The position numbers and the translations under genes are program-made. 64,000 nucleotides of DNA from an uncultured Gemmatimonadales bacterium (GTDB lineage Bacteria > Gemmatimonadota > Gemmatimonadetes > Gemmatimonadales > GWC2-71-9). This document shows positions 3,254 through 25,199 of this stretch, one piece after another. How positions within the stretch are numbered: position 1 is the first letter of the stretch; every line of letters starts with the position of its first letter. A model generated the notes under the pieces. It saw only the letters and a list, made by a program, of their open reading frames with translations. It had not been told where the DNA came from and searched no databases. The stretch spans positions 864,001 to 928,000 of the forward strand of contig CAWGED010000019.1 in NCBI GenBank assembly GCA_963821525.1, written 5' to 3'.

Positions 3254-7595
<4,342 letters not shown>

Positions 7596-7728: not shown

Positions 7729-10518
7729 TCAACCGGCGACGCGGGCCTTTTTCGAAGCGGAGTGCCAGCGGTGAGGACCGGAAAGCCGCGGCCCCGGCTC
7801 GGCTAGCAGCCGGTCGATCCCGGCAGGCGGCAGCGGCGCCGCGAAGAAGTAGCCCTGCCCCATCTCGCATCCCAACTCGATGAGCGCTTCACACTGCTCG
7901 ACGCTTTCGACGCCCTCCGCCACGGTCTTCAGCTTGAGCGTCTCCCCCAGCCCGATGATGGCCCGCGCGAGCGCCGACTTGTCCAAGCCAGCGCCGACGT
8001 CCTCGACGAACGGCCGGGCGATCTTGATCATGTCGATGGGGAAGCGCTGCAGATAGCCCAGCGAGGAATAGCCGGTCCCGAAGTCGTCGATCGCGAGTTG
8101 CACACCGAGCCCCTTGAGCTCCCGCAGCCGGGCCAGCACCTGGCCGGTCTGCTGCATCAGCACGCTCTCGGTGATTTCCAGTACCACGGCATCCGGCTCC
8201 ACCCGGGTATCGGCCAGCGCCTGGCGGGTCTCGTTGACGATATCGAGCTCGTGAAGCTGACGGCCTGAGACGTTCACCGCGATGGTCAGAGACAGCTCGG
8301 GATACATGGCGCGCCACAGCTCCGCCTGACGGCAGGCCTCGCGCAAGACCCAGCGACCCAGCCGCACGATGAGTCCGGTTTCTTCGGCGAGCGGTACGAA
8401 ATGCTGGGGCAAGAGGTGCCCGAACTGGGGATGTTCCCAGCGCAGCAGCGCCTCGACGCCGTGAACCTTGCCGCTTCTGAGGTTGAAGATCGGCTGGTAG
8501 ACCAGGGTTAGCTCTTCCTTCTCGATCGCGCTGCGGAGCGCGGCTTCCATCTCGAGCCGCTGCTTGAGGTCGTGATACATCTGCGACTGGTAGGTCTCGC
8601 AGCGCCCCTTGCCCTTCCGCTTGGCGGTGTACATCGCCATGTCAGCATTGCGGAGCAGGTCGTCCGCGGTTTCGTCGTCGCTGGCCGACGCGATGCCGAT
8701 GCTGGCGCTCACGCTCACTTCGTTGCCGCTCAGACTGAAGGGGCGGGCCATCGCCTCCACCAGCCGGCCGACAAGGAACCCGGGGCCTTCGGGCGCGCCG
8801 CCGTCCTCCAGCAGGATCGCGAATTCGTCGCCGCCCAGCCGCGCTACCGTGTCGGCCGCCCGAACGCACGCTTGAAGCCGCTCGGAGGCGGCGACGAGAA
8901 GCCGGTCGCCCTCCCCGTGTCCGAGGCTGTCGTTGACCTTCTTGAAATCATCCAGGTCGAGGAACAGCACGCTGATCGCATTGCGCTGCCGCATGCGCAG
9001 CTGCAGTGCGTGACTCACTCGGTCGCGGAAGAGCGCGCGGTTGGCCAGGCCGGTCAGGGGGTCGTGGAACGCCTGGTGCATCAGCTCCTTCTCGAGCCGC
9101 TTGCGTTCGCTCACGTCCCGGGTGTTGAGCACGACCCCGCGAACGGTCGGATCCTCGAGCAGGTTGGTCGCGATGGTCTCCGCATTCAACAACGAACCGT
9201 CGGGCTGCCGGAACCGCCATTCGACCGGCTGGGTGACGCCCGGGTTGGTAACCGCATCGCTCAGGAAGGTACGCGCCCGTTCCTGGTCATCAGGGTGCAG
9301 CAGGTCGATGACGGTGCGGCCCATGAGCGGCCCCGCATCGTAGCGCAGCACCCGGGTCACGGAGGGACTGACGAACTTGATGCTGAGGTCCGGCTTGATG
9401 ACCATGATCACGTCGGACGAGTGCTGCACCAGGGAACGGAAGCGGGCCTCGTTCTGCCGCGCGGCGTTCTCCGCGAGCAGGCGTACGTTCTGCCGGACCG
9501 CCATCAGCTGGCGCCCCACCACCAGGACCGTCATCAGCACGGCACCGACGGCGATGCCGCTGATCGGATCGCTCCACGGTTCGAGCGCAGCGGTGAGCAG
9601 CAGGCCGTAGGTGGACGCGACCGCGAGGTAGGGCAGCGGAGTGATCGGCTGAACCCGCGGGCGATGCGCCGCCATGGTCGAGCTGCGCGGAACCGGACTT
9701 CGCCAATAGAGCTCGCCGCTCGAGATGAGCATCAGGTAGAGCAGCAGGTACACCGCGTCGGTCCAGGCCGCGCTCCGTTCGCCGGTCTGGAGCAGCACCA
9801 GGTCGAAGGTCAGATCCGCCACGATTCCGACGGTGATGCCGATGACCAGGAGGTGGAAGGCGAGGCGATTCCCGTCGAGCGGGCCGCGCAGCATCACCGT
9901 CGCGATGCCGAGCAGCAACAGCAGATTGGCCAGCGGGTAGGCGAACGCAAGGACGGTGAGGACGATTCCGTTTCCAGCCGTAGCACCCGCCGCGGTGGTG
10001 GGCCGGATCGTGTAGTACCAGATGACGACCGCTCCGCCGACCAGCACCATGGCGGCGTCCAGCACAAACTTCCAGCGCTCCACCCGAATGCGCCGCGCGA
10101 GCGGGAACGAGAGCAGCGCGGCCAGCATCAGGAACGAATCGGAGAGATAGAACGCGTCGGCCCAGCTGACCGGAGGGTTCTCGCCGAGCGCGGTGAGGTA
10201 GTAGACCGAGATGCTGTTGCCGATGAGGACGGTCAGCGCTCCCAGCGCGAGCAGTCTCAGCGCCTGTCGCACCGACGGGTCGAGATCCTGATTGCGGGAG
10301 GCTACCACGTTCAGAATCATCACCGTCAGATTGAGCGGCATGAACGCGACGTTGCCCAACAGATCCCGCAGCTCGGTGGATCCCCACCCCGCCCGCTCGA
10401 ACACCAGGTAGAACAGCATGTAGACGGCTGCCAGACCGGTAAGCGTGCCGACCGGAAGCCGTGAGGCTTTCCGGCTCAGATTGCTAAGCACACCGACGTT
10501 CCCGTCGACTTTAGACAA
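7729..10518 (-). CDS. Multi-pass membrane PAS-GGDEF-EAL diguanylate cyclase/phosphodiesterase
   Basis: Hydrophobic N-terminal ~340 aa; PAS (RFRSLVQHSSD..LHPDD); HDPLTGLANR, RLGGDEF; VEALLRW, DDFGTGYSS. Exact start uncertain. Confidence 0.93.
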   Translation of the reverse strand: MSKVDGNVGVLSNLSRKASRLPVGTLTGLAAVYMLFYLVFERAGWGSTELRDLLGNVAFMPLNLTVMILNVVASRNQDLDPSVRQALRLLALGALTVLIGNSISVYYLTALGENPPVSWADAFYLSDSFLMLAALLSFPLARRIRVERWKFVLDAAMVLVGGAVVIWYYTIRPTTAAGATAGNGIVLTVLAFAYPLANLLLLLGIATVMLRGPLDGNRLAFHLLVIGITVGIVADLTFDLVLLQTGERSAAWTDAVYLLLYLMLISSGELYWRSPVPRSSTMAAHRPRVQPITPLPYLAVASTYGLLLTAALEPWSDPISGIAVGAVLMTVLVVGRQLMAVRQNVRLLAENAARQNEARFRSLVQHSSDVIMVIKPDLSIKFVSPSVTRVLRYDAGPLMGRTVIDLLHPDDQERARTFLSDAVTNPGVTQPVEWRFRQPDGSLLNAETIATNLLEDPTVRGVVLNTRDVSERKRLEKELMHQAFHDPLTGLANRALFRDRVSHALQLRMRQRNAISVLFLDLDDFKKVNDSLGHGEGDRLLVAASERLQACVRAADTVARLGGDEFAILLEDGGAPEGPGFLVGRLVEAMARPFSLSGNEVSVSASIGIASASDDETADDLLRNADMAMYTAKRKGKGRCETYQSQMYHDLKQRLEMEAALRSAIEKEELTLVYQPIFNLRSGKVHGVEALLRWEHPQFGHLLPQHFVPLAEETGLIVRLGRWVLREACRQAELWRAMYPELSLTIAVNVSGRQLHELDIVNETRQALADTRVEPDAVVLEITESVLMQQTGQVLARLRELKGLGVQLAIDDFGTGYSSLGYLQRFPIDMIKIARPFVEDVGAGLDKSALARAIIGLGETLKLKTVAEGVESVEQCEALIELGCEMGQGYFFAAPLPPAGIDRLLAEPGPRLSGPHRWHSASKKARVAG

Positions 10519-10917: not shown

Positions 10918-13130
10918 TCAAGTCTTGGGGTTTCCCTCCGCCGGTGTCGCACGCTGCCGCACCGCGGCGAGGGCCAGCACGATCGATTCCTGGGAGGCGA
11001 GCAGCTCCCGCACCACCTCACCTGACGGCCGTGGCTGCCGTCTGGGTCGATCGGTCTGCTCGAGAAAGGGCCAGAGCGGAACCCGGATGCTTTCCGGGAG
11101 GACACTTTCCAGGTATTCCAGCGCGGTTCCTCGCAAATACGGCTCGTCGGTGAGCAGCGCACGGTACGCCAGGCGAAGAGGAGCGGCCGGCCTCACGAGG
11201 GCGAGCAGGGTGAAGACATGCTCGAGGCTTCGGTTGGCGCGATCCCGGACGATGTCGGCCTCCGTGGGCGACCACAGCTCGTCGTCGGCATCGAGCAGAC
11301 GGCGGCCTTCCCAGACCCCCCGCTCCACTGTGAGCTCTCGGTGGATCGCGTTCATGACCTGGTCCTCCTTCACCCGGATGCCGGGCATCCGTTCCATCAT
11401 TCGGGCGAGCGCTCCCCCGGCACGATACCGTACTTCGAAGCGCCGGTCTCCCAGCGCACCCAGGAGTGCCTCGAAAGACTGGTCGGTGAAGCAGTCTGCC
11501 AGTACTGCGACCAGTCTGCGCCGCACCGCGAAATCTTCATCGGGATCGAGCAGCCGCCGGGTCAGGAGATCCAGGTTCTCGGAAGCGACTCTTCGCAGTG
11601 CCGCGACGGCATCGGAAGCCACCGCATCCCAGGCCAGGAGATCAATCACTCCGCCAACCTGGTCGCGAGCGAGCGGCGGGCCTCGAAGTCTCGACCGCAC
11701 CGCGGCGACATCCTGAGCGGGCGAGGGGTGTGGCTTCTCCTTATCCTGTTCCGGAGCCGCGGAGCCAGCTTCGTGGCAGTGTCGGGATACTCGCCGGATT
11801 TACCCTCAACGAGGTCAGATCGATCGCGCCAACGGTCTGGAACATCGCGGCCGCGACTTCTTCCGGCCCCAACTGGTCTTCCCTGGCTCGGAGGCTCCGT
11901 TCGAGCGCGCCGAGATATCCCCGTTGCATCCGGCGGGCGATCGCAAGGGTGCCCAGGGCAAGCGCGAGCGTTGCGACCGAGCAGGAGCGGTCGCGACCTG
12001 GAGCGGCGCCGCGAGAATCGCGAGCTGGGCCAATCCCGCCCCGGCGATGTCTCCCAATCGAGCGCCGCCGACATCCACTACCGGCTTTGCGGCTCGTCGC
12101 TCCAGAGCGGAGACCGGGGAGTAAAGCAGCTCCTGGGCCGATCGGAAAACCGAATTGCGGAGCACTGTTTCGACAGCCACGCGCCACTGCCACGGAGGGA
12201 AAGCCGGGTGCCACCAGAGGCTACCAGCGAGCCGAGGGCCACTCCACCGGGCAGCAGCATGCGTGCTCCGAGCGACACCCAGCCGATTGAATATCCAGCC
12301 GGAGCACCGACACCTGCAGCAGGACGGTGAGCAGCGAGGTCACGGTATAGAACACGCGCGAAGAGCCGGAGCAAGCCAGGCCCGTCGGTCATCGTGGACG
12401 CCTGCAGCTTGAAGACGTAGTCCAGCACTCCTTCCGCCGCCGCGGCGAGTGCAACGAGGTAGAAGAGCAGGCGGAGGTATGAGGAGTGGCGCAGCGCTTC
12501 GATGGCCGACGAGGTCGTATCACCCGCCTCAGCGTAATGGGGCCGGCTGGCCGAAGCTGCGGGCGAGGGGCAGTACCAGGATCGCCAGCACCCAGCTGGA
12601 GCAGCGCAAGAACCGGTAAGCATGGAGCTGGCGGAGAACGCGGTCCCCATCGCGCTCCGTCAGGAGGCCGCCCAGGAGCCCGCCAGCCGAGGCCCCGGCA
12701 GTAATCAGGCCCACTGCCCGCCGGGCGGAGCGAGGGTCGAACGATTCATTGACCAGGGCCCAGAATGCCGAGACCAGGAGGGCGCCAAGGCGGTGACGTG
12801 GAGATAGACCAGGAATGCCGCCGGCCGGAGAGACACGAAGCTCAACAGCCACTCGCACGGACGAGCAGGATCGCGACTCCGGCGAAGAGCCGGGGCACCA
12901 GCGTCGCGGGACCCTGCTGGGCCAGCCGTCGTGCCAGCCACAGGGTGACGAAGCAGCGACGAGACCGCGGCGGTCACCACCATCCGCGGCAACAGCGTGA
13001 CGCCAAAGCTGGTGATGAAGAGGGCGTCGCGCGTGGCCTTGGCGGCCAGTTGGAATGCGATCGCCACGGTGCTTGCGAGGACCGTGGCGCGGATGAACCC
13101 GGGCTGATCGCCCGTATTGCGCGCGCTCAA
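10918..13130 (-). CDS. NTT/Npt (TLC, ATP/ADP translocase-like) transporter fused to C-terminal HEAT repeats; multiple frameshifts
   Basis: Fragments across frames: KATRDALFITSFG, FWALVNESFDPRSARR, GVLDYVFK, ETVLRNSVFRSAQELLYSPV..KPVVDVGGARLGD; HEAT-like LLGALGDRRFEVRYRAGGAL. Probable TTG start at 13130 overlapping the upstream stop. Confidence 0.7.
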
Positions 13131-15679
13131 AAGGCGAAACCGGCCTGGACGTAGAGGGCGGTTGTTCGTCCCCGGCGGCCACGGCGGCACTCACTGTGTA
13201 GTCGCGGGCAATGGGCGCCAGCCAGATGCCGCCGCCGAAGGAGCTATGCCAGACATCGGAGTTCTCGCCCTCGAGGAAAACCCGGCCCACGTCAGCCAAA
13301 CCGAACACTCCGAAATCGGTCGGCAGGACGATGGTGGCGCGGCCCAGGCCCAACCGCAACTCTGCGTTGCCGTAGGCCGAGGCATCGCCGGCATAGCGGT
13401 TGTCGCGGCCGAGACGGACGGTCCCGGCGTCTCCGATGTATGCCGCTTCGAAGTAGGGATACGGGCCCCAGATTTTCTTCCCACCCGCCCTGAAGGCAAA
13501 GGTGGGGTGTAGCGGCAATTTCGGACTCAGGAACGTCGTGGCCTCCGCCGCGACATCGCCGAAGTCCTCTTCGACATCCCACCACGCCGGGAACACCCGT
13601 CCGGTGACCTCGACCGTCCAGCCCCGAGTGGCGGCGTGCAGCCGGTTCCGGCTGTCGAATCGGAACGCTACTCCGGCCCCGACTTCACCAAAATTCCCCG
13701 AGCCATATGGATTGACCGTGGCGAGGAAACGATCGGTACGGTTGTCGGTGCTCGCATACTTGAAATACGGTCCGAACGCGATATTCCCGTGTTGGGTCAA
13801 GGGGAACAGGAAGAGGGGCGACACCGTGTACGCGTCCTGAGTCACCCGGTAGAACTCGGCGCTTCCTGGATCATCGATTTCGTTGCCGAAGCCGTGGAAG
13901 TTCAGCACGTCTATGCCCGACGCCCGGGCCAGAAGCAGAAATCCGGCCCGTGAGTTCTCCCGATGGAACTCGCCTCGGTAGTCCACCCGATAGGAGAGTG
14001 GACCTGTGGCGAATCCCGCCCTGATCCGCTGCCGACTGGCAAAGGGAAGTTTGCGGAAGCCATACCGAGTGTAGGTGAGACCGGCGCCGAAGAAGAAGCC
14101 CAGGTCGGGGCCGTAAGAACCCCATATATGAACCTGCGAGCGATGCCCCCAGTCCCGGGGAGGGAGCTGACCCGCCGGGCGGGGCGGCAGCACGTATGGC
14201 TTGCGATCGATCTCCTCGCTTTTTCCCAGAGTGTGTTCCGGCGCCGCAGGATCATCGTAAAACCGATTGCTTCCGCTGGCCGCGGAATCGACCAGCACAT
14301 CGTCACCTTCATCCGCGAGGATTCTCAGGGTGGGGCCGCCACCGCTCCCGGATACCATCGCGCTGTCATCGCCATTTCGCAGAGTGACCCGGATGTCCTT
14401 CGTCTCATTTGCGAGGAACTTTCGGCGAAACCAGGGCAGACCCGGGCGTTTCGCGGGAACCTATGGTGAGCTCGAGGCCTGACTCATCACGGGTCGCGAT
14501 AGCCACATCGCTGCTGTCGGTCGCGGTGACGTCGACTTCGCCCGCCAGCATTTGATAGTACTTCCGCGCTTCCTTGGGCAGGCCGTTTCTGCGTTGGATG
14601 ATCCATTCGGTCAGGCGGCTCCCGATGAGCTGCAAATGCTCCGGAGGGAGGGCGGCCACCGCGTCCTGAATCACGCTATCGCTGAGGGCAGCCGTCAATC
14701 GGCTGACGACGGCCTCCCAGTCCGACCAGGAAAGGCCGATGAGCAGCCGACGATCCAGGTCGCGCCCGTTCCAGGCGGCGCCGACCGGATTGGAGTAGGC
14801 GCCCTTGAAGTCGGTGAGCTGAGGGGCGCTCTGCCGCGCGATCCACAGCAGGAATCCGTCGTACTTGGCGAAGGCCTGATCCCGGTCGAGGGGAATGGGG
14901 ACCCACCGTCGAGGAACTGAGTCTCCGAAGTAGGCCCAGCGCCATTGATCGCGGTGCCGGTCCCAGTCGCCGATCAGAACATCGAACAGCCTGGCCGTAA
15001 GGAAGGCGGGTCCGTCCACCTGATCATCCGAGGATCGTTCGAGCCGGGCAAAAAGGGTGTCGGTGAGGACGATCTCGGTGGCTCCGCCCCAGTGCGCCGC
15101 GGGACCCGACCCACCGACCCGATCTTCGAGGGTGCCCATGAGTCCGGCAAAGTCGGAGCGGAACTCCCCCATGCGCTCGACATCGGGCAGGACGACGATC
15201 GCCGGATCGGCGTGGAGAATGCCGGCGGCCTTGAGCAGCCGGCCCACGACCAGGGGCGCCGTCGGCAGGGCCGAGCTGGTTTGATCCCGCGCCACACCCG
15301 CCGCAACGGTCTGCCGGAATTCCTCCGGGAGAGCACCCGAGGGATCCTTGTCGATTGAGCGGAAAAAGAACTGTCGCCCGTCGGTGGCCTGCAGACGAAG
15401 GGTCTTGCTCTGCTGGCCTCCGGTTCCGGACACGGCGCGTACTCCTCCCGCGAAGGTATCCATGTCCAGCACTGGAACCGTTATCGGAGTGGTCCACACC
15501 TCGCGATACTCGCTGCCCAACAGGAACCGATGGAACCAACCGGCGCCATACTGTTTGCCGGCAGCCTGAAGAGTCGTCTCGGGCTGAGGCTCGGGAACCT
15601 GCTGTGCGAGGAGGGACCCAACCGGGAGTGTGGCACTCAGGACGAGGGTTACCGCCGCGACTCCCCGCCGGATCCTCAT
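13127..15679 (-). CDS. Secreted Omp85/BamA-TamA-family outer membrane protein with N-terminal atypical kinase-like domain; 2 frameshifts
   Basis: Signal peptide MRIRRGVAAV..SLLA|QQ; barrel motifs FRFDSRN..RG, GRDNRYAGD..GNAELR, FGGGIW; C-terminus ALYVQAGFAF* (terminal Phe). Joined from ORFs 14405..16051 and 12529..14358 plus a final frame. Confidence 0.75.
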
Positions 15680-17090
15680 GCCAATCCTGCCGTCTTCAGC
15701 CGGTACGCACGACCGACCAGTACGGCCAGCACCAACCAGCAAAGCGCCAGCACCAGGTTCACCTTGGCGAACTGCGATGTAGCCGAACCGAAGCTGACTG
15801 GTCCCCACGAAGACCAGGAGGGCGGACAGGACATCTCCCGACCGGACGAAGAAGGAATCGATGACCTGTTTCGCCTTGTACTTCTGTTCCCGGCTGGTGG
15901 GGAGGAAGAGTACGTTGCGCACCGTGTTCTGCAGCGAATAGTCGTTCGCGTTTTCGGCGATCTTCACCGAGCGAACCACGGAGAGAACCGGAAAGAGAGC
16001 GATCGCCGGATAGCCGACCATGGCGATGATTGGCGCGACGAGGACTGCCACCTGAACTCCGAAATACTTGAAAATGCCGGGACACTACGAACAGTTGGAG
16101 CAGGATGCCGACGCTGTTGACGACGAAATAGAACTGGGAGTAGAACGCCCCGATGAACTCCGCCTCCGAGAGTCCACCGGTAGCCCCCTTGGCAACGGCG
16201 GCCTTGGCCGCGGCGGTCAACGGTGCTCGAGAGGATATACTCCCCAGTGGTGTTGACCCAGTTGAGCACCAGAATCATCAGCGCGATCAGCAGGAGATAG
16301 CGATCCCCGAAGACCAGCCGGAAGGTGCCGGGCCGAGGCGGCAACCCGCTGCGGGAGAGCGTTACCGCCTTCTTCTCTCCCCTGGTGACGACTTCGTACT
16401 CACCAGTCGCCGCGGGTACCGTCGCCGTAGTGAACCGGTCTGGAATCCCGGCCTCCGCGTGCCGCCGCTCTCGCGCATCCACGCGATTGCTCAGGACCGC
16501 GGCGATCGCCAGCAGAGCAGCGGCGACCAGCAGCAGCTGCGGCACTCCCACCAAGCGGAATGAGCCGGTTGGTCAGGAGACTTCCAACCACGGCACCCAG
16601 CGATGCCCCGAAGGCGACAATCGGAAACAGCCGCTCGCCCTGATCCTTGGTATACAGGTCGTTAGCAAAGGACCAGAACTGCGCCACGATCATCAGGTTG
16701 AAGATGCCGACCCAGAGAAAGAACGGGAACGCCAACCGGCACGCGAGCATGGGCCAGAGCCCAGAACCCCACGAGGCACACGATGAAGAAGCCGGTGACC
16801 ACATTGAGCAGGCGCCGGCGCGGAAGTCGGTCGGCCAGGGCGCCATACGCGGGAACCAGCACGAGAAGGAGCAAGGCCTGTCCCGCAGCGACGTAGCTCT
16901 TGACCACGGCCCCTTCGTGCGAGAGGATGAGCGCCTCCCGAACCGGCTTGAGGATGTAGTAGGCGCACAGCAGGAGAAGCACATTGAGCGCGAGAAGGAG
17001 GGCCGTTACTCCCTCCCCCGCTCGAACATCGGTGAACAACCGAAGCGCTCGATCCAGCGGCGCGGCTTGATCCACGGTGGACGTAGTCAC
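15676..17090 (-). CDS. NTT/Npt1-Npt2 family nucleotide (ATP/ADP) transporter homologue; multiple frameshifts
   Basis: DVRAGE..AYYILKPVREAL; WVGIFN..AQFWSFANDLY..GERLFP..GASLG; ENANDYSLQNTVRNVLFLPTSREQKYKAKQVIDSFFVRSGD. Confidence 0.8.
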
Positions 17091-18502
17091 CCGATGCTCA
17101 CCGTGACGAAGCGAAGTTTGCTGTCCCGAAGGACCTGGAGAACCACCGTGTCTCCCGAATTCAGCGCCGAAAGGCTTTGCCGCAGATCCGCGACGGTGGC
17201 CACGGCGGTTCCGTTCAAAGCATAGATCACATCGCCTGGCTGCAGTCCGCCCTGCCCGGCGGTGGCGTCCGGGGTGAGAGCCGCGACGACCACTCCGCTT
17301 GGTTGCCGCAGCCCCGGGATTTGAGCCGCCAGTTCCTTGGTCATGTCGAGCCCCAGCACACCCAGCCTCGGCACGAGGTTTTTCTCGGGCGTCACCAGAC
17401 TGCCCAGGCGAGCTGCGTTGTCCTGTCGCTCGATCACCGGCACCCGAATGGTCTGGTGCTGGAGGCCTCGCCGCACATCGAGCGCCACCGATTGCCCCAG
17501 GGGCTGGCGATAAAGCGTCACGTCAAACTGCCGCCCGTTCTCAACCACCTTTCCGTTCACCGATAAGACGACATCGCCGGTCTGAAGGCCGGCCTTGGCA
17601 GCGGGACCGCCTGGATACACATCGCCGATGACCACGCCCCAGTTCTGGGGGAGACGAAGGGCCGTCGCCATGGCGGGCGTTATCGTCTGGGCGAAGACCC
17701 CGATGTCGCCCCGGCGGACTCGGCCGTATTGCCGCAGCTGGTCAACCACGTGGCGGACGATGTTGCTGGGGGCGGCAAAGCCGATCCCTTCGCTGCCGCC
17801 CGACTGGCTGAGAATGAGGGTGTTGATGCCAGTCACCGCTCCATCGGTGGTCACCAGAGGCCCTCCGCTGTTGCCCGGATTGATCGGGGTGTCGGTCTGG
17901 ATATAGACCATCCGATCGTCTTCCCGAAGCTGCCGGCCCACCGCACTCACGACCCCCATCGTCACCGTGCTGGCCAGCCCGAGCGGACTGCCCAATGCGA
18001 GGACCAATTCGCCAGGCTCGAGCGAATCGGAATCAGCGAGGCGAGCGACGGGCAGTCCGGTGGCTGGAACCTTGAGAACGGCGAGGTCCGTCTCGCGATC
18101 GATTCCCACCAGCTCGCCCTGGAGCTCGCGAGCGGGACCGGCCACGAGCGATCTCCCCGGAGCGTCGGGTGCGGCCGGAGTGGCCAGCGCGACTGTGAAG
18201 CGGCGCCCGCCCTCGACCACGTGTGCATTGGTGACGATGTAACCGTCCGGGCTGAGGATGACGCCAGAGCCGGTCTGTTGCTGGTTGCCCAGAAAAGCCG
18301 TGCCGCTCTTCTCGCCTAGCGGACCCCAGGCGGCGACTCGAACCTGAACCACGGCGGGTTGTACCTGGGAGGCGACCTTTGCGAGATCCCGACTCAGGGC
18401 TCGCAGATCTTGCTGGGCTGGGAGCGCGTTGGGCCACGCAAGTAACGCCAGCAGGGCAGCGAGCCTCGCCAGCGCAGAGAGGTGCAGGTCAGCGCGCCCC
18501 AC
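17087..18502 (-). CDS. HtrA/DegP-DegQ family periplasmic serine protease with two PDZ domains
   Basis: GSGVI..VTNAHVV, TDLAVLK, IQTDTPINPGNSGGPL; signal peptide ending ALPA|QQ. Confidence 0.92.
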   Translation of the reverse strand: MGRADLHLSALARLAALLALLAWPNALPAQQDLRALSRDLAKVASQVQPAVVQVRVAAWGPLGEKSGTAFLGNQQQTGSGVILSPDGYIVTNAHVVEGGRRFTVALATPAAPDAPGRSLVAGPARELQGELVGIDRETDLAVLKVPATGLPVARLADSDSLEPGELVLALGSPLGLASTVTMGVVSAVGRQLREDDRMVYIQTDTPINPGNSGGPLVTTDGAVTGINTLILSQSGGSEGIGFAAPSNIVRHVVDQLRQYGRVRRGDIGVFAQTITPAMATALRLPQNWGVVIGDVYPGGPAAKAGLQTGDVVLSVNGKVVENGRQFDVTLYRQPLGQSVALDVRRGLQHQTIRVPVIERQDNAARLGSLVTPEKNLVPRLGVLGLDMTKELAAQIPGLRQPSGVVVAALTPDATAGQGGLQPGDVIYALNGTAVATVADLRQSLSALNSGDTVVLQVLRDSKLRFVTVSIG

Positions 18503-20157
18503 TGGCCTGCTCGACCGCGTCCGGTTCAGAAGTGAGGGCCGGCATCAGGCGCATATCACACTCGACACACTCTTCGCTGAAGGCATTGAGCGGCCGATGC
18601 CTTTCCCACCAGTGTGCCGCCCGCTCTTCATCCCAGACTGCTCCGGGTACTGCAGCCTGGAGCCGCGCGGCCAGCTCTCTCGCCGACTGTGGACGGTCCT
18701 CGGGACGCTTCGCCAGACAGGAGAGGATCACCTCGTCGAAGGCTGCGGGCAGCTCGATCTCGGTCCGCCGGGAAGGTGGTATTGGCGGCTCGTTCGCGTG
18801 CTTCAGCATCATGGCCACGGCTGACGGCGCGTCGAAAACCAGTTTACCCGTCACCAGCCAATAGGCCACGCAGCCCAGGGCGTAAATATCCGCCCGGTGG
18901 TCCACCGGAGTCCCCAGAACAGTCTCCGGTGCGATGTAGGCGGGAGTACCGGCCGTCGCGTTGGGTGCAGTCAGCATCGACTGGCCAGGGTCCGCGTTCT
19001 CGGCCTTCACCAGACCAAAGTCCAGCACTTTACGAAATCAACTTCGAGACCGAGACGACAGGTGAAGATGTTTCCACGCCTTAATGTCGCGGTGGACCAG
19101 CCCATTCACGTGAGCCTCTTCGAGCGACGCGCACGCCTGGGTCAGCAGATACACTGCCCGTTCGGCCGACACCGGACCGAAGGTCTGCACCAGCCTCTCG
19201 AGGTCCAGGCCATCGAGCAATTCCATCACCAGAAAGAAGGTGCCGTCCTCCGACACCCCGAAGTCGTACAGGCTTATCGTGTGCGGCGACTTCAGGGAGG
19301 CGGTGGCCTGTGCCTCGCGCCGGAATCGCTCGAGAATCAGCCGAGCGCCAGCCGCACTGGTGCCACCCAGCACTTCCTGGCGGATGAGCTTGATCGCTGC
19401 CGGACGGGCGAGGGTATGATGCGTGGCTCGATACACCTCGCCCATGCCACCCTTGCCCAACACCTCCTCAAGGCGGTAGCTCCCCAACTCACGCGCACGA
19501 TTGACCTGCTGGCCCAGGCGCCGGATCACCTTGACGGGGACCACCGCGATGGCCGCCGCGATGTAGTTGGGGAGGAAGGCCCAGAGGTAATTGAACAGGG
19601 TCGCGTTCACTTCCTGTCCGCGCAGGGTCGAAATCCAGAGCGCGAGCGGCCCCATGCTGGCCGCCAACAAACCAGTGAAGAGTGTCTTCCGCACCGTATT
19701 GGGCACGATCGAGGGATAGACAACGATTCCCACGATGATCCAGGAGGGGCTCGGCTGGGTGACATGGGGCTCCCACTGCTCAATCAAGCCCACGAGCAGT
19801 GACGTAAGCACCAGGTAGCCCGAACCCAGGTCGAGCAGTAGCTGCTGTCTGAAGCCCTTAACACGGCCCAGGTAGGCCATGAGCAGGGAAGCGGCCAGGC
19901 CGATTCCCGCAGATGAGGTTCCCCGGCATCGGCCAGACCGGGTAGTAGAGCATCGTCACTCCGAGGATCCGGGCGACGACGTTGTTCATGAACAGGGCGA
20001 ACGCCCACAGCGCCGCGAAAGGCGAGAGCTGGCCGCCCAGACCCGTTGGCAGGTCTGGTACAAGACATCGTTAGGCAGGCTGCGCTCAGCCCCACTCGCG
20101 GACATGGCCTGGAGCGGGGGTGGAGGGACGGCGTTGAATAGTCCGGGGTGCGGCCAT
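18489..20157 (-). CDS. Membrane-anchored Ser/Thr protein kinase; frameshifted
   Basis: N-terminal TM segments then LGKGGMGEVY, AAIKL, HRDIK (ORF 19038..19880) continuing DFGLVK..GTPAYIAPE (ORF 18489..19028); probable ATG at 20157. Confidence 0.8.
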
Positions 20158-20237: not shown

Positions 20238-20271
20238 CAAAACGCCCCCGGTGGGATCTCCGGGGGCGTTG
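20238..20271 (-). terminator. Rho-independent terminator
   Basis: Stem AACGCCCCCGG/CCGGGGGCGTT followed by T-rich tail on the minus strand. Confidence 0.7.
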
Positions 20272-20295: not shown

Positions 20296-20967
20296 CTAGT
20301 GAGCGCCCGTCGTATCCACGGTAAGCGAGAACCCGTTCTTGTCCGCCTGAAGCCGTACGACCGCGCGCCCGTCCTTGCCATTTACCAGCAGGAAGGCGCC
20401 GTTGCTGTCGGCCTTCAGGTGAAGCAGCTCGCCCTTATCGCCCTTGGCACTCACGCGAATGGGACCGGTGAAATCGGCGTCGGCCGAGAACGGGTCTCCC
20501 TTGTGGAGCTGAGCCACGACCTTGCTTCCGGCGAGAACGGGGCGCTCGAGCCCCGAAGGCTGGAACACGATCGACCCGACCTCCTGCCACCCGCTTTCAC
20601 CTTTCGCGGCGCAGCGGAAACCATCCTCGAACTCGAAGTCATCACCGCCGACCGGCACCAGCTGACACGCCTTCAGCTGCGACAGGTCCGCATCCGAATC
20701 GAGGGCTACGGTAAACGTGAAGTGAGCGAGATCCTGGTCGGCGGGGCGGCGAATCGACATGTGGTTGACGGTCCCCAACCGCTGCCCTTCCAGGACGAAG
20801 GGGATGTCCGCCTGCAGCTCGGCGGTCGCGACATGGAGCGGCCGGGTTACCCGGGTTAGCGCTGCCTTCATTGTACTCTTGGCATCTTCGACGACGGTGA
20901 CGAGCAGCATGCCGACCAGAAAGACGCCGAGGGCGCCGAGGCCGATTTTGGTCCACAGGGTGCGCAT
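20296..20967 (-). CDS. Hypothetical protein with N-terminal membrane anchor
   Basis: Clean 223-aa ORF, GGAGG RBS, single TM helix, downstream terminator; no family recognised. Confidence 0.7.
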   Translation of the reverse strand: MRTLWTKIGLGALGVFLVGMLLVTVVEDAKSTMKAALTRVTRPLHVATAELQADIPFVLEGQRLGTVNHMSIRRPADQDLAHFTFTVALDSDADLSQLKACQLVPVGGDDFEFEDGFRCAAKGESGWQEVGSIVFQPSGLERPVLAGSKVVAQLHKGDPFSADADFTGPIRVSAKGDKGELLHLKADSNGAFLLVNGKDGRAVVRLQADKNGFSLTVDTTGAH

Positions 20968-21008
20968 GGGAGACCTCCGGGAAGTGACCGACGGGGCAAT
21001 GGTGCCCG

Positions 21009-21035
21009 TACGACCCCGGTCACCGAGCGGTTTCA
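21009..21035 (-). promoter_or_regulatory. ECF sigma (SigW-like) promoter
   Basis: Minus strand TGAAAC-N17-CGTA about 40 bp upstream of ORF 20296..20967. Confidence 0.5.
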
Positions 21036-21085
21036 GAATGGGACATGGCTAGACCAGCCCCGGAGGAGGAGGCTTGGAGGAAAGC

Positions 21086-21115
21086 CAACGGGCGGGGGAT
21101 ATCCCCCGCCCGTTG
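21086..21115. terminator. Stem-loop downstream of pilC
   Basis: Near-perfect palindrome CAACGGGCGGGGGATATCCCCCGCCCGTTG. Confidence 0.6.
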
Positions 21116-21138
21116 ACGATTCCTGTGGGATCCGGCGG

Positions 21139-22344
21139 TTACTGGACCGCGTTCACCATGTCGAAGATCGGGAGGTACATCGCGACCACCATGCCGCCCA
21201 CGATGACGCCGAGGACGACGATCATGATCGGCTCCATAAGGGAGAGCAGCGCACTGACTGCGACGTCAACCTCGTCATCGTAGAAGTCGGCGATCTTGGA
21301 GAGCATCTCGTCCAGGCCGCCGGTCTGTTCGCCGACCGCGATCATCGAGATCACCATCGGCGGGAAGACCTTGGACTTCTCGAGCGGGGCGGCAATCGTC
21401 TCACCGCCGGCGATCGACTGCCGGGAGGCCATTACTGCGTCATGGATGACCCGGTTGCCGGCCGTCTTGGCCGTGATCTCGAGTCCGTCCAGGATGCTCA
21501 CGCCGGAGCTGATCAGGGTGCCCAGCGTCCGGGTGAAGCGGGACACGGCCGACTTCCGCAGCATGTCGCCGAGGACCGGAGCGTTGAGCAGCATCTGGTC
21601 GATCCGCTTCTTGCCGTCGTCGGTGGCGTAGTAGCGCCGGATGCCGAAAATCGCCAACCCGATCACGGCGATAATCACCCACCAGTAATTGATGAGCAGC
21701 TGGGACGCACCGATCACGATACGGGTCGGGAGCGGCAATTCCAGGTTGACCGAGGCGAACATCGCCTGGAAGGTCGGGATCACGAAGATGAGCAGCACGG
21801 CCACGGCCACCGCGGCTACGGTGAAGATCACGCCGGGGTAGACCATCGCGCCCTTCACCTTGCGCATCAGGGCGTCGTTCTTTTCCAGGAACGTCGCCAG
21901 ACGGAGCAGAATGGTGTCCAGGATACCGCCCGCCTCACCGGCCGCGACCATGTTGACGTAGAGGTCGGTGAAGGCCTTGGGATGCTTGGAGAAGGCATCG
22001 GCCAGGGTGTGCCCGCTCTCCACGTCGTACACCACCTGCCGGGTGACTTCGGCGAGGGCGGGGTTCTCGGTCTGCTTGGCGAGGATGTCCAGCGATTGGA
22101 CCAGCGGCAGACCGGCGTTGATCATGGTCGCGAACTGCCGGGTGAAGATCACGATGTCCCGGGTCGCGACGCCCTTCCGCTTGAGGCTGAAGCTGATCTG
22201 CTTCGGCTGCTCGCGGATGTTCACCATCATCATCTTCTGCTGCTTGATGTGCTTCACTACGTCGTCTTTCGACGCCACATCGAGCTGGCCCTTTAGGATC
22301 TGGCCATTGGCAGGGTTTCGCGCGGTGTACTCGTAGACTGGCAT
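21139..22344 (-). CDS. pilC: Type IV pilus inner membrane platform protein
   Basis: FTRQFATMINAGLPL, AGEAGGIL, AMVYP, VGEQTGGLDEML, MYLPIF. Confidence 0.93.
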   Translation of the reverse strand: MPVYEYTARNPANGQILKGQLDVASKDDVVKHIKQQKMMMVNIREQPKQISFSLKRKGVATRDIVIFTRQFATMINAGLPLVQSLDILAKQTENPALAEVTRQVVYDVESGHTLADAFSKHPKAFTDLYVNMVAAGEAGGILDTILLRLATFLEKNDALMRKVKGAMVYPGVIFTVAAVAVAVLLIFVIPTFQAMFASVNLELPLPTRIVIGASQLLINYWWVIIAVIGLAIFGIRRYYATDDGKKRIDQMLLNAPVLGDMLRKSAVSRFTRTLGTLISSGVSILDGLEITAKTAGNRVIHDAVMASRQSIAGGETIAAPLEKSKVFPPMVISMIAVGEQTGGLDEMLSKIADFYDDEVDVAVSALLSLMEPIMIVVLGVIVGGMVVAMYLPIFDMVNAVQ

Positions 22345-22362
22345 GAGGCAGCCCCCCCTGAG

Positions 22363-23490
22363 TTAGCGCCGGCCGGCCGGCTTGGCGGACTTCTCCACAG
22401 TCCCCATCTCCTGCTCCTCGATCGGCGTCTCGCCGCACATCCGGAGGAGCTCGTTCGGATCACTCGAGGCCCGGAGACATTCCTCGAGGGTTACTTCCCG
22501 GCTGGTGTGCAGCTGGAAGAGCGAATCGTTCATCGTCTGCATGCCGTGCTTCTTGCCCGACTGAAGTGCGGAGTAGATCTGGTGGACTTTGTCATCGCGG
22601 ATCAGTGCCCGGATGGCGGGGGTGCAGACCATGATTTCGGCGGCCATGGCGCGTCCCCTGCCCTTCGCTTTCTGCAGCAGGGTCTGGGTCACGACGCCTT
22701 CCAGCACGAAGGCCAGCTGGGCCCGGACCTGCTGTTGCTGGTTCGAAGGGAACACGTCGATGATGCGGTTGATGGACTCCGCCGCCGAGTTGGTGTGCAG
22801 CGTCGCCAGAGCCAGGTGGCCGGTCTCGGCGATGGTGAGCGTGGCGGCGATCGTTTCCAGGTCGCGCATTTCGCCCACGAGCAGCACGTCGGGATCTTCG
22901 CGAAGAGCGTACTTCAGCGCGTTGGCGAAACTCTTGGTGTCGGTGCCCACTTCGCGCTGATTGATGATGCAGCTCTGGTGACGGTGGATGAACTCGATCG
23001 GGTCTTCGACCGTGATGATGTGACCCTTCCGCTCCTTGTTGATCTTGTCGAGAATCGCCGCGAGCGTGGTTGATTTCCCCGAGCCGGTCGGCCCGGTTAC
23101 CAGGATCAGCCCGCGCGGCTTCTCCGCCAGCTTGGAGAGGATCGGGGGAAGGCCCAAGTCCTGGAAGGTCCGCACATTGAAGGGAATCATGCGGATCACC
23201 ATGGCCACACAACCGCGCTGCTTGAAGACGTTGCCGCGGAATCGGGCAAGGTTCTGGATGCCGAAAGAAAAGTCCAGCTCGTCCTCGGTCTCGAATCGCT
23301 TTTTCTGATTTTCGGTGAGGACCGAGTAGGCGAGCGAGAGGGTATCCTTCGGGGTCAGCACGTCGGGCGGCGCGGCGTTGGTCATGTCTCCGTCGACCCG
23401 AATTTTGGCCCGCTCGCCGGCAGTAACGTGGAGGTCCGAGGCCTCCTTCTCGATCATCTCCTCGAGCAGCGCGCGCAGATTGATCGTCAT
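22363..23490 (-). CDS. pilT: Type IV pilus retraction ATPase
   Basis: GPTGSGKSTT, EDPIEF, ALREDPD, GEMRD, TLHT, AIRALIR motif, GMQTM. Confidence 0.95.
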   Translation of the reverse strand: MTINLRALLEEMIEKEASDLHVTAGERAKIRVDGDMTNAAPPDVLTPKDTLSLAYSVLTENQKKRFETEDELDFSFGIQNLARFRGNVFKQRGCVAMVIRMIPFNVRTFQDLGLPPILSKLAEKPRGLILVTGPTGSGKSTTLAAILDKINKERKGHIITVEDPIEFIHRHQSCIINQREVGTDTKSFANALKYALREDPDVLLVGEMRDLETIAATLTIAETGHLALATLHTNSAAESINRIIDVFPSNQQQQVRAQLAFVLEGVVTQTLLQKAKGRGRAMAAEIMVCTPAIRALIRDDKVHQIYSALQSGKKHGMQTMNDSLFQLHTSREVTLEECLRASSDPNELLRMCGETPIEEQEMGTVEKSAKPAGRR

Positions 23491-25199
23491 CCAGCCGTCT
23501 CCTTGATGACCTCTTCGAGCGTGGACACGCCTCTCTCAATCTTCTTGATTCCGTCCATCCGCAGGGTCAGCATGCCCTCGGCCACCGCCTGATCCCTGAG
23601 CTCCGCCACCGAGGCCCCTCGCAGAATGCCACGCCTGAGGTCGGGTGAGAGAGCCATGACCTCATAAAGGCCCGCTCGCCCCTTATAGCCCGTGCCATTG
23701 CATGTGTCACACCCAGAGCCCTTCTGGAAGGGCAAGTTCCGGACCTTCTCTATATCCTCGTCCAGGGACTTGAGTTCCACATCGGTATAGGTGTGCGGCC
23801 CCTTGCAGTCCTTGCAGATACGCCGTATCAGCCGCTGGGCCACGACCAGGTTGACGGCACTGGCCACATTGAACGCCTCGATCCCCATGTCGATCATGCG
23901 GGTGATCGTGCTGGGTGCGTCATTGGTATGCAAAGTGGAGAGCACCAGGTGCCCCGTGAGTGCGGCTTTGATCGCGATGCCGCCGGTCTCCAGGTCCCGG
24001 ATCTCCCCGATCATGATGATGTTGGGATCCTGTCGCAGGAACGCCTTCAGCGCCGCCGCGAAGGTGAGCCCGATCTCGTTGCGGACCAGGACCTGATTGA
24101 TCCCCATCAGGTTGTACTCGACCGGGTCCTCCGCCGTCATGATGTTGGTCTCGATGGTATTGACCCGGGACAACGCGGAGTAAAGCGTCGTCGTCTTTCC
24201 CGAGCCGGTCGGCCCCGTGACCAGTACCATGCCGTACGGATTCAGAATCGCCTTCATCAAGTCCGCCTCGGCCTTGGGCTCGAAGCCGAACTTGCTGAGA
24301 TCGAGAGTCAGGTTCCCCTTGTCGAGAATTCGCATCACGATCTTCTCGCCGAAGAGCACCGGCAGAGTGGATACCCGGAAGTCGATCACCCGGTTGCCCA
24401 TTTTCAGCTTGAGGCGGCCGTCCTGCGGCACCCGCCGCTCCGCGATATTCAGCTGGGAGAGAATCTTGACGCGCGAGGTGAGCGCGGCCTTCATCTTCAC
24501 CGGTGGCTTCATCACTTCGAGCAGCGCGCCGTCGATGCGGTAACGCACCCGGATTTCGTGCTCGAACGGCTCGATGTGAATGTCCGACGCACCCCGCTTG
24601 ACCGCGTCGGTCAGAATGCCGTTGATCAGCTTAACGACCGGCGCGTCGTTGATCTGCGCCTGGGTCGCGGCCTCCTCCTCTGCGTCCTCCACCACCTCGA
24701 CATCCGTATCACCCATGTTCTCCATGTCCTTCAGCAGCGTCTGCAGCTGCTGATCGGAGGACTCGTAATGCTTTTCCAGGAGATTGCGCAGGGTGTACTC
24801 GCCGGCGATGACCGGGAACAGGTCGTACCGGGTAATGAACTTCAGGTCGTCGAGCACCCCGGTGTTGGTGGGGTCCGCCATGGCGACGGTCAGGGTGCGT
24901 CCTTCGCGCTTGAGCGGGAGCAGGATGTGTTTCAGCGCGAAGTCCCCGGGGACCATCTTGAGGATCCTCGGATCCACCTCGAACCGGGACAGGTCCACCG
25001 CCGGCATCCGATACTGGCGGGCCAGGACCTTGGTGACCTCCAGCTCCTGCACCAGTCCCAGTTTGACCAGAACGTAGCCCAACCGGTGTCCGGTGGACTT
25101 TTGCTCGCTCAGGGCCGCCGAGAGTTGCTCACGTGTGATGAGCCCTTCGCGGATGAGTATGTCACCCAGCCGATCGTTGCTGGCCGCAGCTGTCGCCAT
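23487..25199 (-). CDS. pilB: Type IV-A pilus assembly ATPase
   Basis: N-terminal RLGDILI (MshEN-like), SDIHIEP, ERRVPQDG, GPTGSGKTTT, LRQDP, tetracysteine motif. Confidence 0.95.
   Translation of the reverse strand: MATAAASNDRLGDILIREGLITREQLSAALSEQKSTGHRLGYVLVKLGLVQELEVTKVLARQYRMPAVDLSRFEVDPRILKMVPGDFALKHILLPLKREGRTLTVAMADPTNTGVLDDLKFITRYDLFPVIAGEYTLRNLLEKHYESSDQQLQTLLKDMENMGDTDVEVVEDAEEEAATQAQINDAPVVKLINGILTDAVKRGASDIHIEPFEHEIRVRYRIDGALLEVMKPPVKMKAALTSRVKILSQLNIAERRVPQDGRLKLKMGNRVIDFRVSTLPVLFGEKIVMRILDKGNLTLDLSKFGFEPKAEADLMKAILNPYGMVLVTGPTGSGKTTTLYSALSRVNTIETNIMTAEDPVEYNLMGINQVLVRNEIGLTFAAALKAFLRQDPNIIMIGEIRDLETGGIAIKAALTGHLVLSTLHTNDAPSTITRMIDMGIEAFNVASAVNLVVAQRLIRRICKDCKGPHTYTDVELKSLDEDIEKVRNLPFQKGSGCDTCNGTGYKGRAGLYEVMALSPDLRRGILRGASVAELRDQAVAEGMLTLRMDGIKKIERGVSTLEEVIKETAG

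Follow-up and report, generated by a model that had tools for sequence, protein, structure and literature searches.

Carriers of the NTT/TLC family (PF03219), such as AtNTT1, CpNTT1 and PamNTT1, and their fusions to HEAT repeats (NTT-HEAT), described with a cyclic nucleotide monophosphate (cNMP)-binding partner and without a known role (Major et al. 2017, PMC5381601), provide the background for the present analysis of a five-gene operon on a 64,000-nucleotide (nt) stretch of DNA (this whole stretch is referred to as the window) from an uncultured soil Gemmatimonadales bacterium (contig CAWGED010000019.1, positions 864,001 to 928,000). The operon encodes a membrane Ser/Thr kinase (STK), an HtrA-like protease, an NTT carrier, an Omp85-type protein with a predicted kinase-like domain, and a short NTT-HEAT fusion. 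Both carriers share the homologous membrane domain, and the second also the HEAT fusion, with the described proteins. Unlike canonical NTTs, they do not conserve K155, E245 and K527 in place and belong to a free-living host; unlike NTT-HEAT fusions with a cNMP-binding domain (cNBD), they form a pair of NTT and short NTT-HEAT accompanied by a membrane STK instead of the cNBD; and unlike the NTTs of parasites, they are predicted to serve the cell's own envelope. NTT-HEAT fusions and the NTTs of free-living bacteria have no assigned function in Major et al. (PMC5381601), the parts of which drawn on here propose no periplasmic kinase partner for NTTs.

With regard to the Omp85-type protein, the ‘Metallo’ subfamily (PF00149 plus Omp85, without POTRA; Heinz & Lithgow 2014, PMC4104836) shares its architecture with two relatives, P0165 (1335 amino acids, aa) and L190 (1284 aa), in which a phosphoesterase, a kinase-like domain, a linker and a barrel follow one another. 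The N-terminal PF00149 phosphoesterase is absent from P0001, an intact homologue of the window protein (850 aa, 94% identical), and is a separate gene in many relatives. Because P0165 and L190 share the remaining parts, the window protein represents the ‘Metallo’ architecture minus its phosphoesterase. The main text of the ‘Metallo’ paper contains neither the word kinase nor gene context (PMC4104836). The patatin-like PlpD also has an enzyme domain N-terminal to an Omp85 barrel (PMC11116518), and differs in that this domain is lipase-like and is accompanied by POTRA, whereas the window protein is kinase-like with no POTRA detected. In S. intermedius a secreted CotH protein is encoded with VTC and a 4TM-ACT gene (bioRxiv 10.1101/2024.04.20.589940), so that an exported atypical kinase has a membrane protein and a gene for polyphosphate synthesis as neighbours, as in the DUF4956/PPK1 arrangement described below; this system differs in being Gram-positive and in having neither barrel nor NTT, and the part of the preprint used here proposes no export of a donor. 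A Gly-rich loop, a Lys, a D-x-H-x-x-N/Q loop and a downstream Asp are common to the domain of the window protein (named KIN1) and to the HipA, PI3-4K, Fam20 and CotH kinases, whereas KIN1 has no direct Pfam match, mostly carries Gln for Asn and is fused to an outer-membrane barrel. In eukaryotes, the lumenal kinase Fam20C and the endoplasmic reticulum ATP/ADP exchanger SLC35B1 follow the logic proposed here, a carrier feeding ATP to a kinase across a membrane, with an unrelated carrier family and in the secretory pathway.

The operon is read here, with a probability of about 0.47, as a module in which the NTT pair would export ATP to a periplasmic kinase, a phosphoesterase would reverse the reaction where present, the STK would replace the cNMP-binding partner and gate the carrier, and HtrA would be an accessory. 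Its parts belong to known families, and the system as a whole was not found described in the main texts of open-access papers, in which neither a kinase domain in Omp85 proteins nor NTTs serving exported kinases were found; an earlier reading based on the letters of the window (the sequence-only reading) had likewise known of no system with this layout. According to a 2020 review, the way in which ATP reaches the periplasm across the inner membrane is unclear (PMC7432876). With this locus, candidates become available for the exporter, the consumer and the regulator, each of which can be expressed in E. coli, so that the periplasmic ATP route and the role of free-living NTTs become directly testable.

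A predicted kinase domain on an Omp85 barrel

Since the frame changes of the window copy were taken as errors (see the last section), the analysis was performed on intact orthologues. In the Omp85-type protein a signal peptide is followed by a domain of 345 residues and then by a linker rich in beta structure, and the C-terminal barrel ends in Phe; a single hydrophobic segment (residues 7-25) is present in its orthologue. The kinase-like domain noted in the sequence-only reading is supported by its motifs, the motif set being kept in 110 homologues: it comprises the Gly-rich loop with G87 (conserved in 106), K111 (109), D132 (108), a catalytic loop with D240 (110; codon at 14960-14962), H242 (104) and Q245 (Q in 102 and N in 8, together 110), and the metal-binding D265 (109; codon at 14885-14887). 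The domain, which is predicted from these motifs to be atypical-kinase-like, has a wide distribution, with 2751 clusters at 50% identity. Its alignment to KIN4 spans 195 columns with the catalytic loop in register (E 2e-4, against E 0.46 for a reversed control); KIN4 is a secreted family of Aminicenantes loci and itself has weak matches to PI3_PI4_kinase, Fam20C and HipA_2.

The barrel part matches BamA chains and the model NF047779 (E 6.7e-17, under that model's cut-off); Pfam Omp85 was matched in 34 of 46 members and ShlB in 22, while no POTRA domain was matched in P0001, in the orthologue of the same-genus genome G001 or in the 46 members. The linker between domain and barrel (about 14170-14540 of the window) weakly matches designed beta-sandwich proteins, and its GGxGxD motif, which we take to be RTX-like, is found in 59 of the 110 homologues. 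Two further KIN1-barrel paralogues of this genome, at L051:9158-11578 (G000:C4) and L052:8465-10921 (G000:C19), have lost the Gly loop, the Lys and the catalytic-loop residues, have no NTT or DUF4956 neighbour, and are likely pseudokinases.

Gene neighbourhoods of the carriers and the kinase-barrels

Loci centred on the NTT carrier were compared in the best 80 of at least 577 relatives from GTDB, a set rich in kin. A predicted exported kinase is encoded in 47 of these 80 loci, namely the fused KIN1 in 19, the split KIN2 in 20, KIN3 in 4 (one of them a 21-bit match), KIN4 in 3, KIN5 in 1 and KIN6 in 2, two loci carrying more than one family; the profiles of KIN2 to KIN6 come from the very loci in which these families were first counted. 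Such a kinase was found in 37 of the 40 loci with NTT-HEAT as opposed to 10 of the 40 without, and, where both flanks reach at least 5 kb, in 23 of 24 as opposed to 4 of 21: the pair of NTT and NTT-HEAT, not a solo NTT, is what predicts an exported kinase. Because the best-80 set is kin-rich and the KIN2-KIN6 profiles were drawn from it, the association was tested outside the set. The phylum was sampled evenly with 120 genomes, many of whose contigs are short; of the 16 clade NTTs in this sample, 11 have KIN1 or KIN2 within 10 kb where about 0.15 are expected, kin not being independent and a few genomes overlapping the best-80 set. In the same sample an NTT-family neighbour is present at 4 of 15 KIN2 loci. 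Among new, mostly short metagenome loci of KIN3, an NTT is present in 9 of 30. Locus L199, from another phylum, unites Omp85 barrel, KIN2, NTT, NTT-HEAT, STK and HtrA.

KIN2 is a separate exported kinase-like gene of 570 aa following a barrel without N-terminal domains, next to which it lies in every locus examined, and this form is present in records titled Eisenbacteria, Acidobacteriota, KSB1, Krumholzibacteriota, Myxococcales and others. KIN3 was found in Gamma- and Betaproteobacteria records and KIN4, in up to four copies, in Aminicenantes records, the loci of both containing NTTs and no barrel; KIN5 and KIN6 derive from single loci. Judging from motifs, KIN6 is presumably CotH-like and KIN3 Fam20-like. 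Pfam kinase families gave no match for KIN2, KIN3, KIN5 or KIN6, and in pairwise profile alignments of the six families only KIN1-KIN2 and KIN1-KIN4 are significant (E ~2e-4), 13 of 15 pairs having E values of at least 0.01. The idea that the NTTs serve an exported kinase, put forward for this one locus in the sequence-only reading, is strengthened by these five further families in the same slot. Exported PPDK-like proteins are encoded in 5 of the 80 loci.

Among the 47 kinase-bearing loci, a barrel is present in 35, a metallophosphoesterase in 27, an STK in 27 and HtrA in 5. The phosphoesterase is therefore the more regular partner, the protease control suggested by the sequence-only reading is weak, and HtrA is ruled out as a core part. 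The order in the Gemmatimonadales clade is STK > NTT > (phosphoesterase) > kinase-barrel > NTT-HEAT, the operon of this genus having no secreted metallophosphoesterase. Near short NTT-HEAT genes an STK is present in 26 of 32 loci and a cNBD in 1 of 32, as opposed to 0 of 11 and 8 of 11 for long NTT-HEAT genes, which suggests that the STK regulates the NTT-HEAT carrier, in the slot of the cNMP-binding partner; no cNMP-binding domain, fused or adjacent, is present in the operon of the window.

Viewed from the KIN1-barrels, the even phylum sample yielded 45 loci in 34 genomes: an NTT is near 9 of them and DUF4956 near 17, no locus has both, and 19 have neither; conversely, DUF4956 was found in 0 of the 80 NTT-centred loci. 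Among 20 loci around the best-matching kinase-barrels in relatives, an NTT is adjacent in 5 (four of the same genus and G011), the remainder being mostly accompanied by DUF4956, an SdiA-regulated propeller, metallophosphoesterases, PPK1 or Ppx, and in a second phylum 0 of 12 kinase-barrel loci have a close NTT and 3 have DUF4956. A search with the window's kinase domain gave no match in 81 genomes of the phylum sample around G043, a result that carries no weight, as this search had no positive control. That all kinase-barrels pair with NTTs is ruled out by these relatives' loci, the phylum sample and the second phylum. Of the NTT-Omp85 co-localisation expected from the sequence-only reading, conservation within one Gemmatimonadales clade stands, and what does not stand is its extension to the whole family, which is found more often beside DUF4956, SdiA-regulated genes or PPK1. 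A quick tree was computed for 41 domains; one of its branches (SH-aLRT 96) contains 20 of the 22 KIN1 domains that are linked to an NTT, so that the fused form appears to have acquired NTTs few times. Every complete domain linked to an NTT (24 of 24) or to DUF4956 (16 of 16) has retained its catalytic motifs, and all 6 motif-altered complete domains, including the two orphan paralogues of this genome, are partnerless.

Several observations were made beside these counts. PPDK-like (ATP-grasp) proteins with signal-peptide-like starts are encoded near NTT-family genes at L129:9842-12772, L122:18095-21004, L119:13715-16270, L206, L210 and L141. In Aminicenantes loci L125:8066-14881 and L127:7851-13161 an NTT lies amid 3-4 short exported Fam20/PI4K-like genes, together with a phosphoesterase and two NTT-HEATs. 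Solo NTTs in L192-L195 and L198 lie near a 290-aa membrane protein and a conserved 442-aa gene, which by its motifs may resemble inositol-phosphate synthase. Kinase-barrels at L042:5924-9121, L045:11270-14422, L049 and L188 stand beside PPK1, Ppx, DUF4956 and SdiA-regulated propellers, the PPK1 of L045 carrying a fused CYTH domain. Elsewhere in this genome, profiles of the long NTT-HEAT type have weak and fragmented matches at C12:150541-152632 and C9:35286-37022.

Candidate ATP delivery and its alternatives

The single NTT matches PF03219 with 35.1 bits (cut-off 21) and has 10 hydrophobic segments, and its profile matches the solved NTT1 chains 9J3N (E 1.3e-5) and 9J3J. For NTT-HEAT the PF03219 score is 20.2 bits in G001 and 25.7 in G011 (cut-off 21), with a profile-profile match to the NTT of probability 98.5. 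The model of canonical ATP/ADP translocases, TIGR00769, is matched with 33 bits against a cut-off of 387. The AtNTT1 residues K155, E245 and K527, whose roles have been described (PMC3306366), align to A68, G128 and D418, the AtNTT1 numbering being set by a single offset of 84 consistent with all three residues and D418 being taken from an ungapped register; K64 and R415 lie one turn away from canonical sites. Invariant in 80 of 80 NTTs are D418, R415, K375, E378 and D382, and near-invariant are K48, R51, K64, K404 and K406. In PamNTT1, the exchange K446E raises the Km for ATP taken in against ADP from 8.6 to 552 uM (PMC2606016, Table 1) and lowers that for ADP taken in against ATP from 1401 to 29 uM, at low Vmax (PMC2606016). 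An acidic D418 at this K446/K527 site would thus fit export better than energy theft; ATP as the cargo is not proven thereby, the three AtNTT1 residues being replaced.

On the reading preferred here, NTT and NTT-HEAT would export ATP across the inner membrane and take ADP back, and the Omp85 barrel would hold the predicted kinase domain at the periplasmic face of the outer membrane, by analogy with PlpD, whose N-terminal enzyme domain is periplasmic (PMC11116518). The barrel-anchored kinase may then phosphorylate an envelope substrate (protein, lipid or glycan), and an exported phosphoesterase, present in most relatives and not in the operon of this genus, could reverse this. The membrane STK would regulate NTT-HEAT in the slot that the cNMP-binding domain occupies beside longer NTT-HEATs, and HtrA would be an occasional accessory. 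An older kinase-barrel form may draw phosphate via a DUF4956/polyphosphate-kinase route, which the NTT pair would have replaced in one clade. As a possible generalisation, held only tentatively, free-living diderms would run an ATP export line in which NTT/NTT-HEAT, gated by cNMP or an STK, feeds six or more interchangeable exported kinase families and dikinases, opposed by phosphatases, with DUF4956/polyphosphate as alternative donor. If true, this would be a counterpart in bacteria of secretory-pathway phosphorylation, and the original job of NTTs would have been nucleotide supply to periplasmic enzymes before energy theft by parasites. The locus itself would give the Omp85 family a kinase-bearing class and account for the central part of ‘Metallo’ Omp85 proteins, which lacks annotation.

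A number of results weigh against ATP delivery to an exported kinase. Regarding the kinase, no Pfam kinase family reaches even E 1 against 46 KIN1-Omp85 members; the ESM Atlas neighbours of KIN1 (Fam20C, HipA and CotH clusters) have scores of 0.78-0.82, a level often reached by shuffled proteins; in the catalytic loop, KIN1 and KIN2 align out of register; and a PDB sequence search with P0001 and alignments A1 and A3 returned no kinase relative. Regarding gene context, 33 of the 80 NTT loci are without a detected kinase and solo NTTs often lack one, as do 47 of 49 distant NTT-family loci of the phylum sample (kinase in 2) and 8 of 10 NTT loci in an even Acidobacteriota-side sample around G044 (kinase in 2); the kinase-barrels with neither partner, the second phylum and the near-confinement of NTT-linked KIN1 to one clade point the same way, and 14 of 20 partnerless domains are still motif-intact. 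Regarding the substrate, the canonical residues are not conserved, and in the HMMER alignment with the Arabidopsis protein R415, not D418, stands at the K527 site. The G-D combination recurs in NTT-HEAT as well as a distant NTT clade and is therefore no special adaptation, and the authors of the K446E study suspect that ATP export is impaired as well (PMC2606016).

These points are shared in part by other explanations. It is conceivable, though unlikely, that the carriers serve the exported kinase without moving ATP outward, by recovering ADP or another product or by carrying NAD(P) or another nucleotide, with polyphosphate or another compound as the donor of the kinase. Such a role would suit the loss of the canonical ATP-binding residues, the preference for ADP that a K-to-E change brings at the K446 site (PMC2606016), the carriage of NAD by PamNTT4 (PMC5381601), the Gln replacing the usual Asn in the predicted catalytic loop, the usual place of the kinase-barrel family beside PPK1, Ppx or DUF4956, and the distant G-D clade adjoining Tat-signal NAD(P)-dependent enzymes. 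The mutual exclusion of NTT and DUF4956, however, fits donor replacement better than product clearance, and the invariant K375 and R415 with the near-invariant K48, R51, K64, K404 and K406 form a possible polyanion site. In addition, the CotH-like, Fam20-like and PPDK-like partners come from families that use ATP. As an observation apart, members of the distant single-domain clade (L136:8299-10832, L137:5194-7688, L170-L172) adjoin Tat-signal NAD-dependent epimerases or aldo/keto reductases, which may point to a delivery of NAD(P) into the periplasm.

An improbable alternative is scavenging, in which the barrel would admit external nucleotides or phosphorylated compounds, exported enzymes would remodel them and the NTTs would import the products. 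Nucleotide import is the activity of characterised NTTs (PMC5381601), uptake and hydrolysis of periplasmic ATP occur in E. coli (PMC7432876), metallophosphoesterases accompany 27 of the 47 kinase loci, and phytase-like propellers and a nucleotide pyrophosphatase lie near relatives; phosphatases alone would do for this purpose, however, whereas a kinase outside the cytoplasm requires a donor, the operon of the window has no phosphatase, and PamNTT1 imports less ATP when the residue at the K527 site is acidic (PMC2606016). Equally improbable is a co-regulated signalling cluster inherited as a block, with NTTs acting as sensors or on another substrate, no metabolic coupling and a window copy that may decay. 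The fused form being mostly one clade, the many NTTs and kinase-barrels standing alone, the clustering of frame changes in the operon and not its flanks, and S. negevensis NTT4, which moved no nucleotides (PMC5381601), would all agree with this. It accounts poorly for six kinase families, barely or not alignable, filling the same slot across several phyla, for the NTT/DUF4956 exclusion, and for intact copies in relatives and independent contigs. Very improbable is the display or secretion of the kinase domain through its own barrel (type V-like, the split form being a two-partner pair) towards targets outside the cell: Omp85/TpsB barrels translocate proteins (PMC4104836), and the ShlB matches, the linker motif and the constant adjacency of KIN2 to a barrel without N-terminal domains agree with it, yet no POTRA was detected, KIN3 and KIN4 loci have NTTs and no barrel, and PlpD, formerly credited with surface display, keeps its enzyme domain periplasmic (PMC11116518).

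Operon layout, frame integrity and neighbouring genes

Table 1. Features of the operon and its surroundings, in window coordinates.
Feature	Position	Strand	Basis and remarks
Terminator-like hairpin of the upstream gene	20241..20270	-	11-pair stem, 9 G-C, T-rich tail
Membrane Hanks-type Ser/Thr kinase (STK)	18489..20157	-	Pkinase; ~6 frame changes in this assembly
HtrA/DegP-like protease	17087..18502	-	Trypsin_2 and two PDZ; reading frame intact
Single-domain NTT/TLC-family carrier	15676..17090	-	PF03219; 469 aa in relatives; 5-6 frame changes
Omp85-type protein, ~850 aa	13127..15679	-	2 frame changes, near 14438 and 13164
Predicted Sec signal peptide of the Omp85-type protein	15602..15679	-	Basic start, hydrophobic core, A-Q type cleavage site, judged by eye
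Predicted atypical-kinase-like domain, residues 36-379	14543..15574	-	Motif conservation in 110 homologues
Omp85-type beta-barrel	13162..14169	-	tblastn with the barrel of the orthologue
Short-type NTT-HEAT fusion	10918..13130	-	HEAT_2 and TLC; ~730 aa in relatives; ~15 frame changes
HEAT part of NTT-HEAT	10921-11706	-	One single frame

The five co-oriented minus-strand genes follow one another as STK > HtrA > NTT > kinase-like Omp85 > NTT-HEAT (Table 1), and the layout with four overlapping junctions, already noted in the sequence-only reading, was confirmed at these ends: the STK starts with ATG at 20157 and overlaps by 14 nt with HtrA, which starts with GTG, and the following junctions are GTGA (17090-17087), ATGA (15679-15676) and TTGA (13130-13127), with the final stop of the operon at 10918. 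Family searches recovered Pkinase, Trypsin_2 with two PDZ, TLC/MFS, Omp85 (weakly) and TLC with HEAT_2. The STK (Pkinase E 4.5e-42 in the intact orthologue) has N-terminal membrane segments, 4 hydrophobic segments above threshold and a cytoplasmic kinase part with the motifs GKGGMGEV, AAIK, HRDIKAGN, DFG and APE (subdomains I, II, VIb, VII and VIII), and the catalytic triad motifs are present in the HtrA orthologue.

Four of the five genes are broken, mostly by single-base insertions, with about 29 frame changes in total. Counted in 30-nt steps against three same-genus relatives, these number 15/15/19 in NTT-HEAT, 2/2/3 in Omp85, 6/5/6 in NTT, 6/6/5 in STK and 0 in HtrA, as well as 0 in the flanking EAL gene and in pilC; they are densest at 11770-13165, the adjoining long genes being unbroken. 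All five genes are intact in G001 (locus L033), with 554, 471, 469, 847 and 732 aa. In contigs of independent soil/rhizosphere runs, which represent near-identical strains and not necessarily that of the window, the extra base of the window is absent in 4 of 4 runs at 12175, 12262, 12299, 15782 and 16076 and in 3 of 4 at 12358, 16221 and 16556, this site-by-site check covering 12 of the 89 indel rows listed. Of 3862 letters compared between the window and one contig over the NTT-HEAT region, 149 differ, and there are 21 gaps, as opposed to ~1% elsewhere, which fits a locally poor assembly. The frame changes are thus most likely assembly errors; decay of the locus, which the sequence-only reading had considered, is ruled out as a general state by G001 and the soil-run contigs and is the less likely reading for this one strain. 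Only 9% of the sequence words were present in the two RNA runs considered.

Upstream of the operon and on the same strand, window 20296-25199 encodes a 223-aa protein without Pfam match and genes that we take to be pilC/pilT/pilB-like, separated from the operon by the terminator-like hairpin of Table 1, which is likely the 5' boundary of the operon. Terminator-like hairpins in the region (6 sites) are no more frequent than by chance, and a promoter scan of the region gave matches at chance level. On the other side lie, at window 3257-7595, a tandem pair of Ser/Thr kinase-TPR paralogues of 722 aa each and, after them at 7729-10518, a gene for a membrane PAS-GGDEF-EAL protein.

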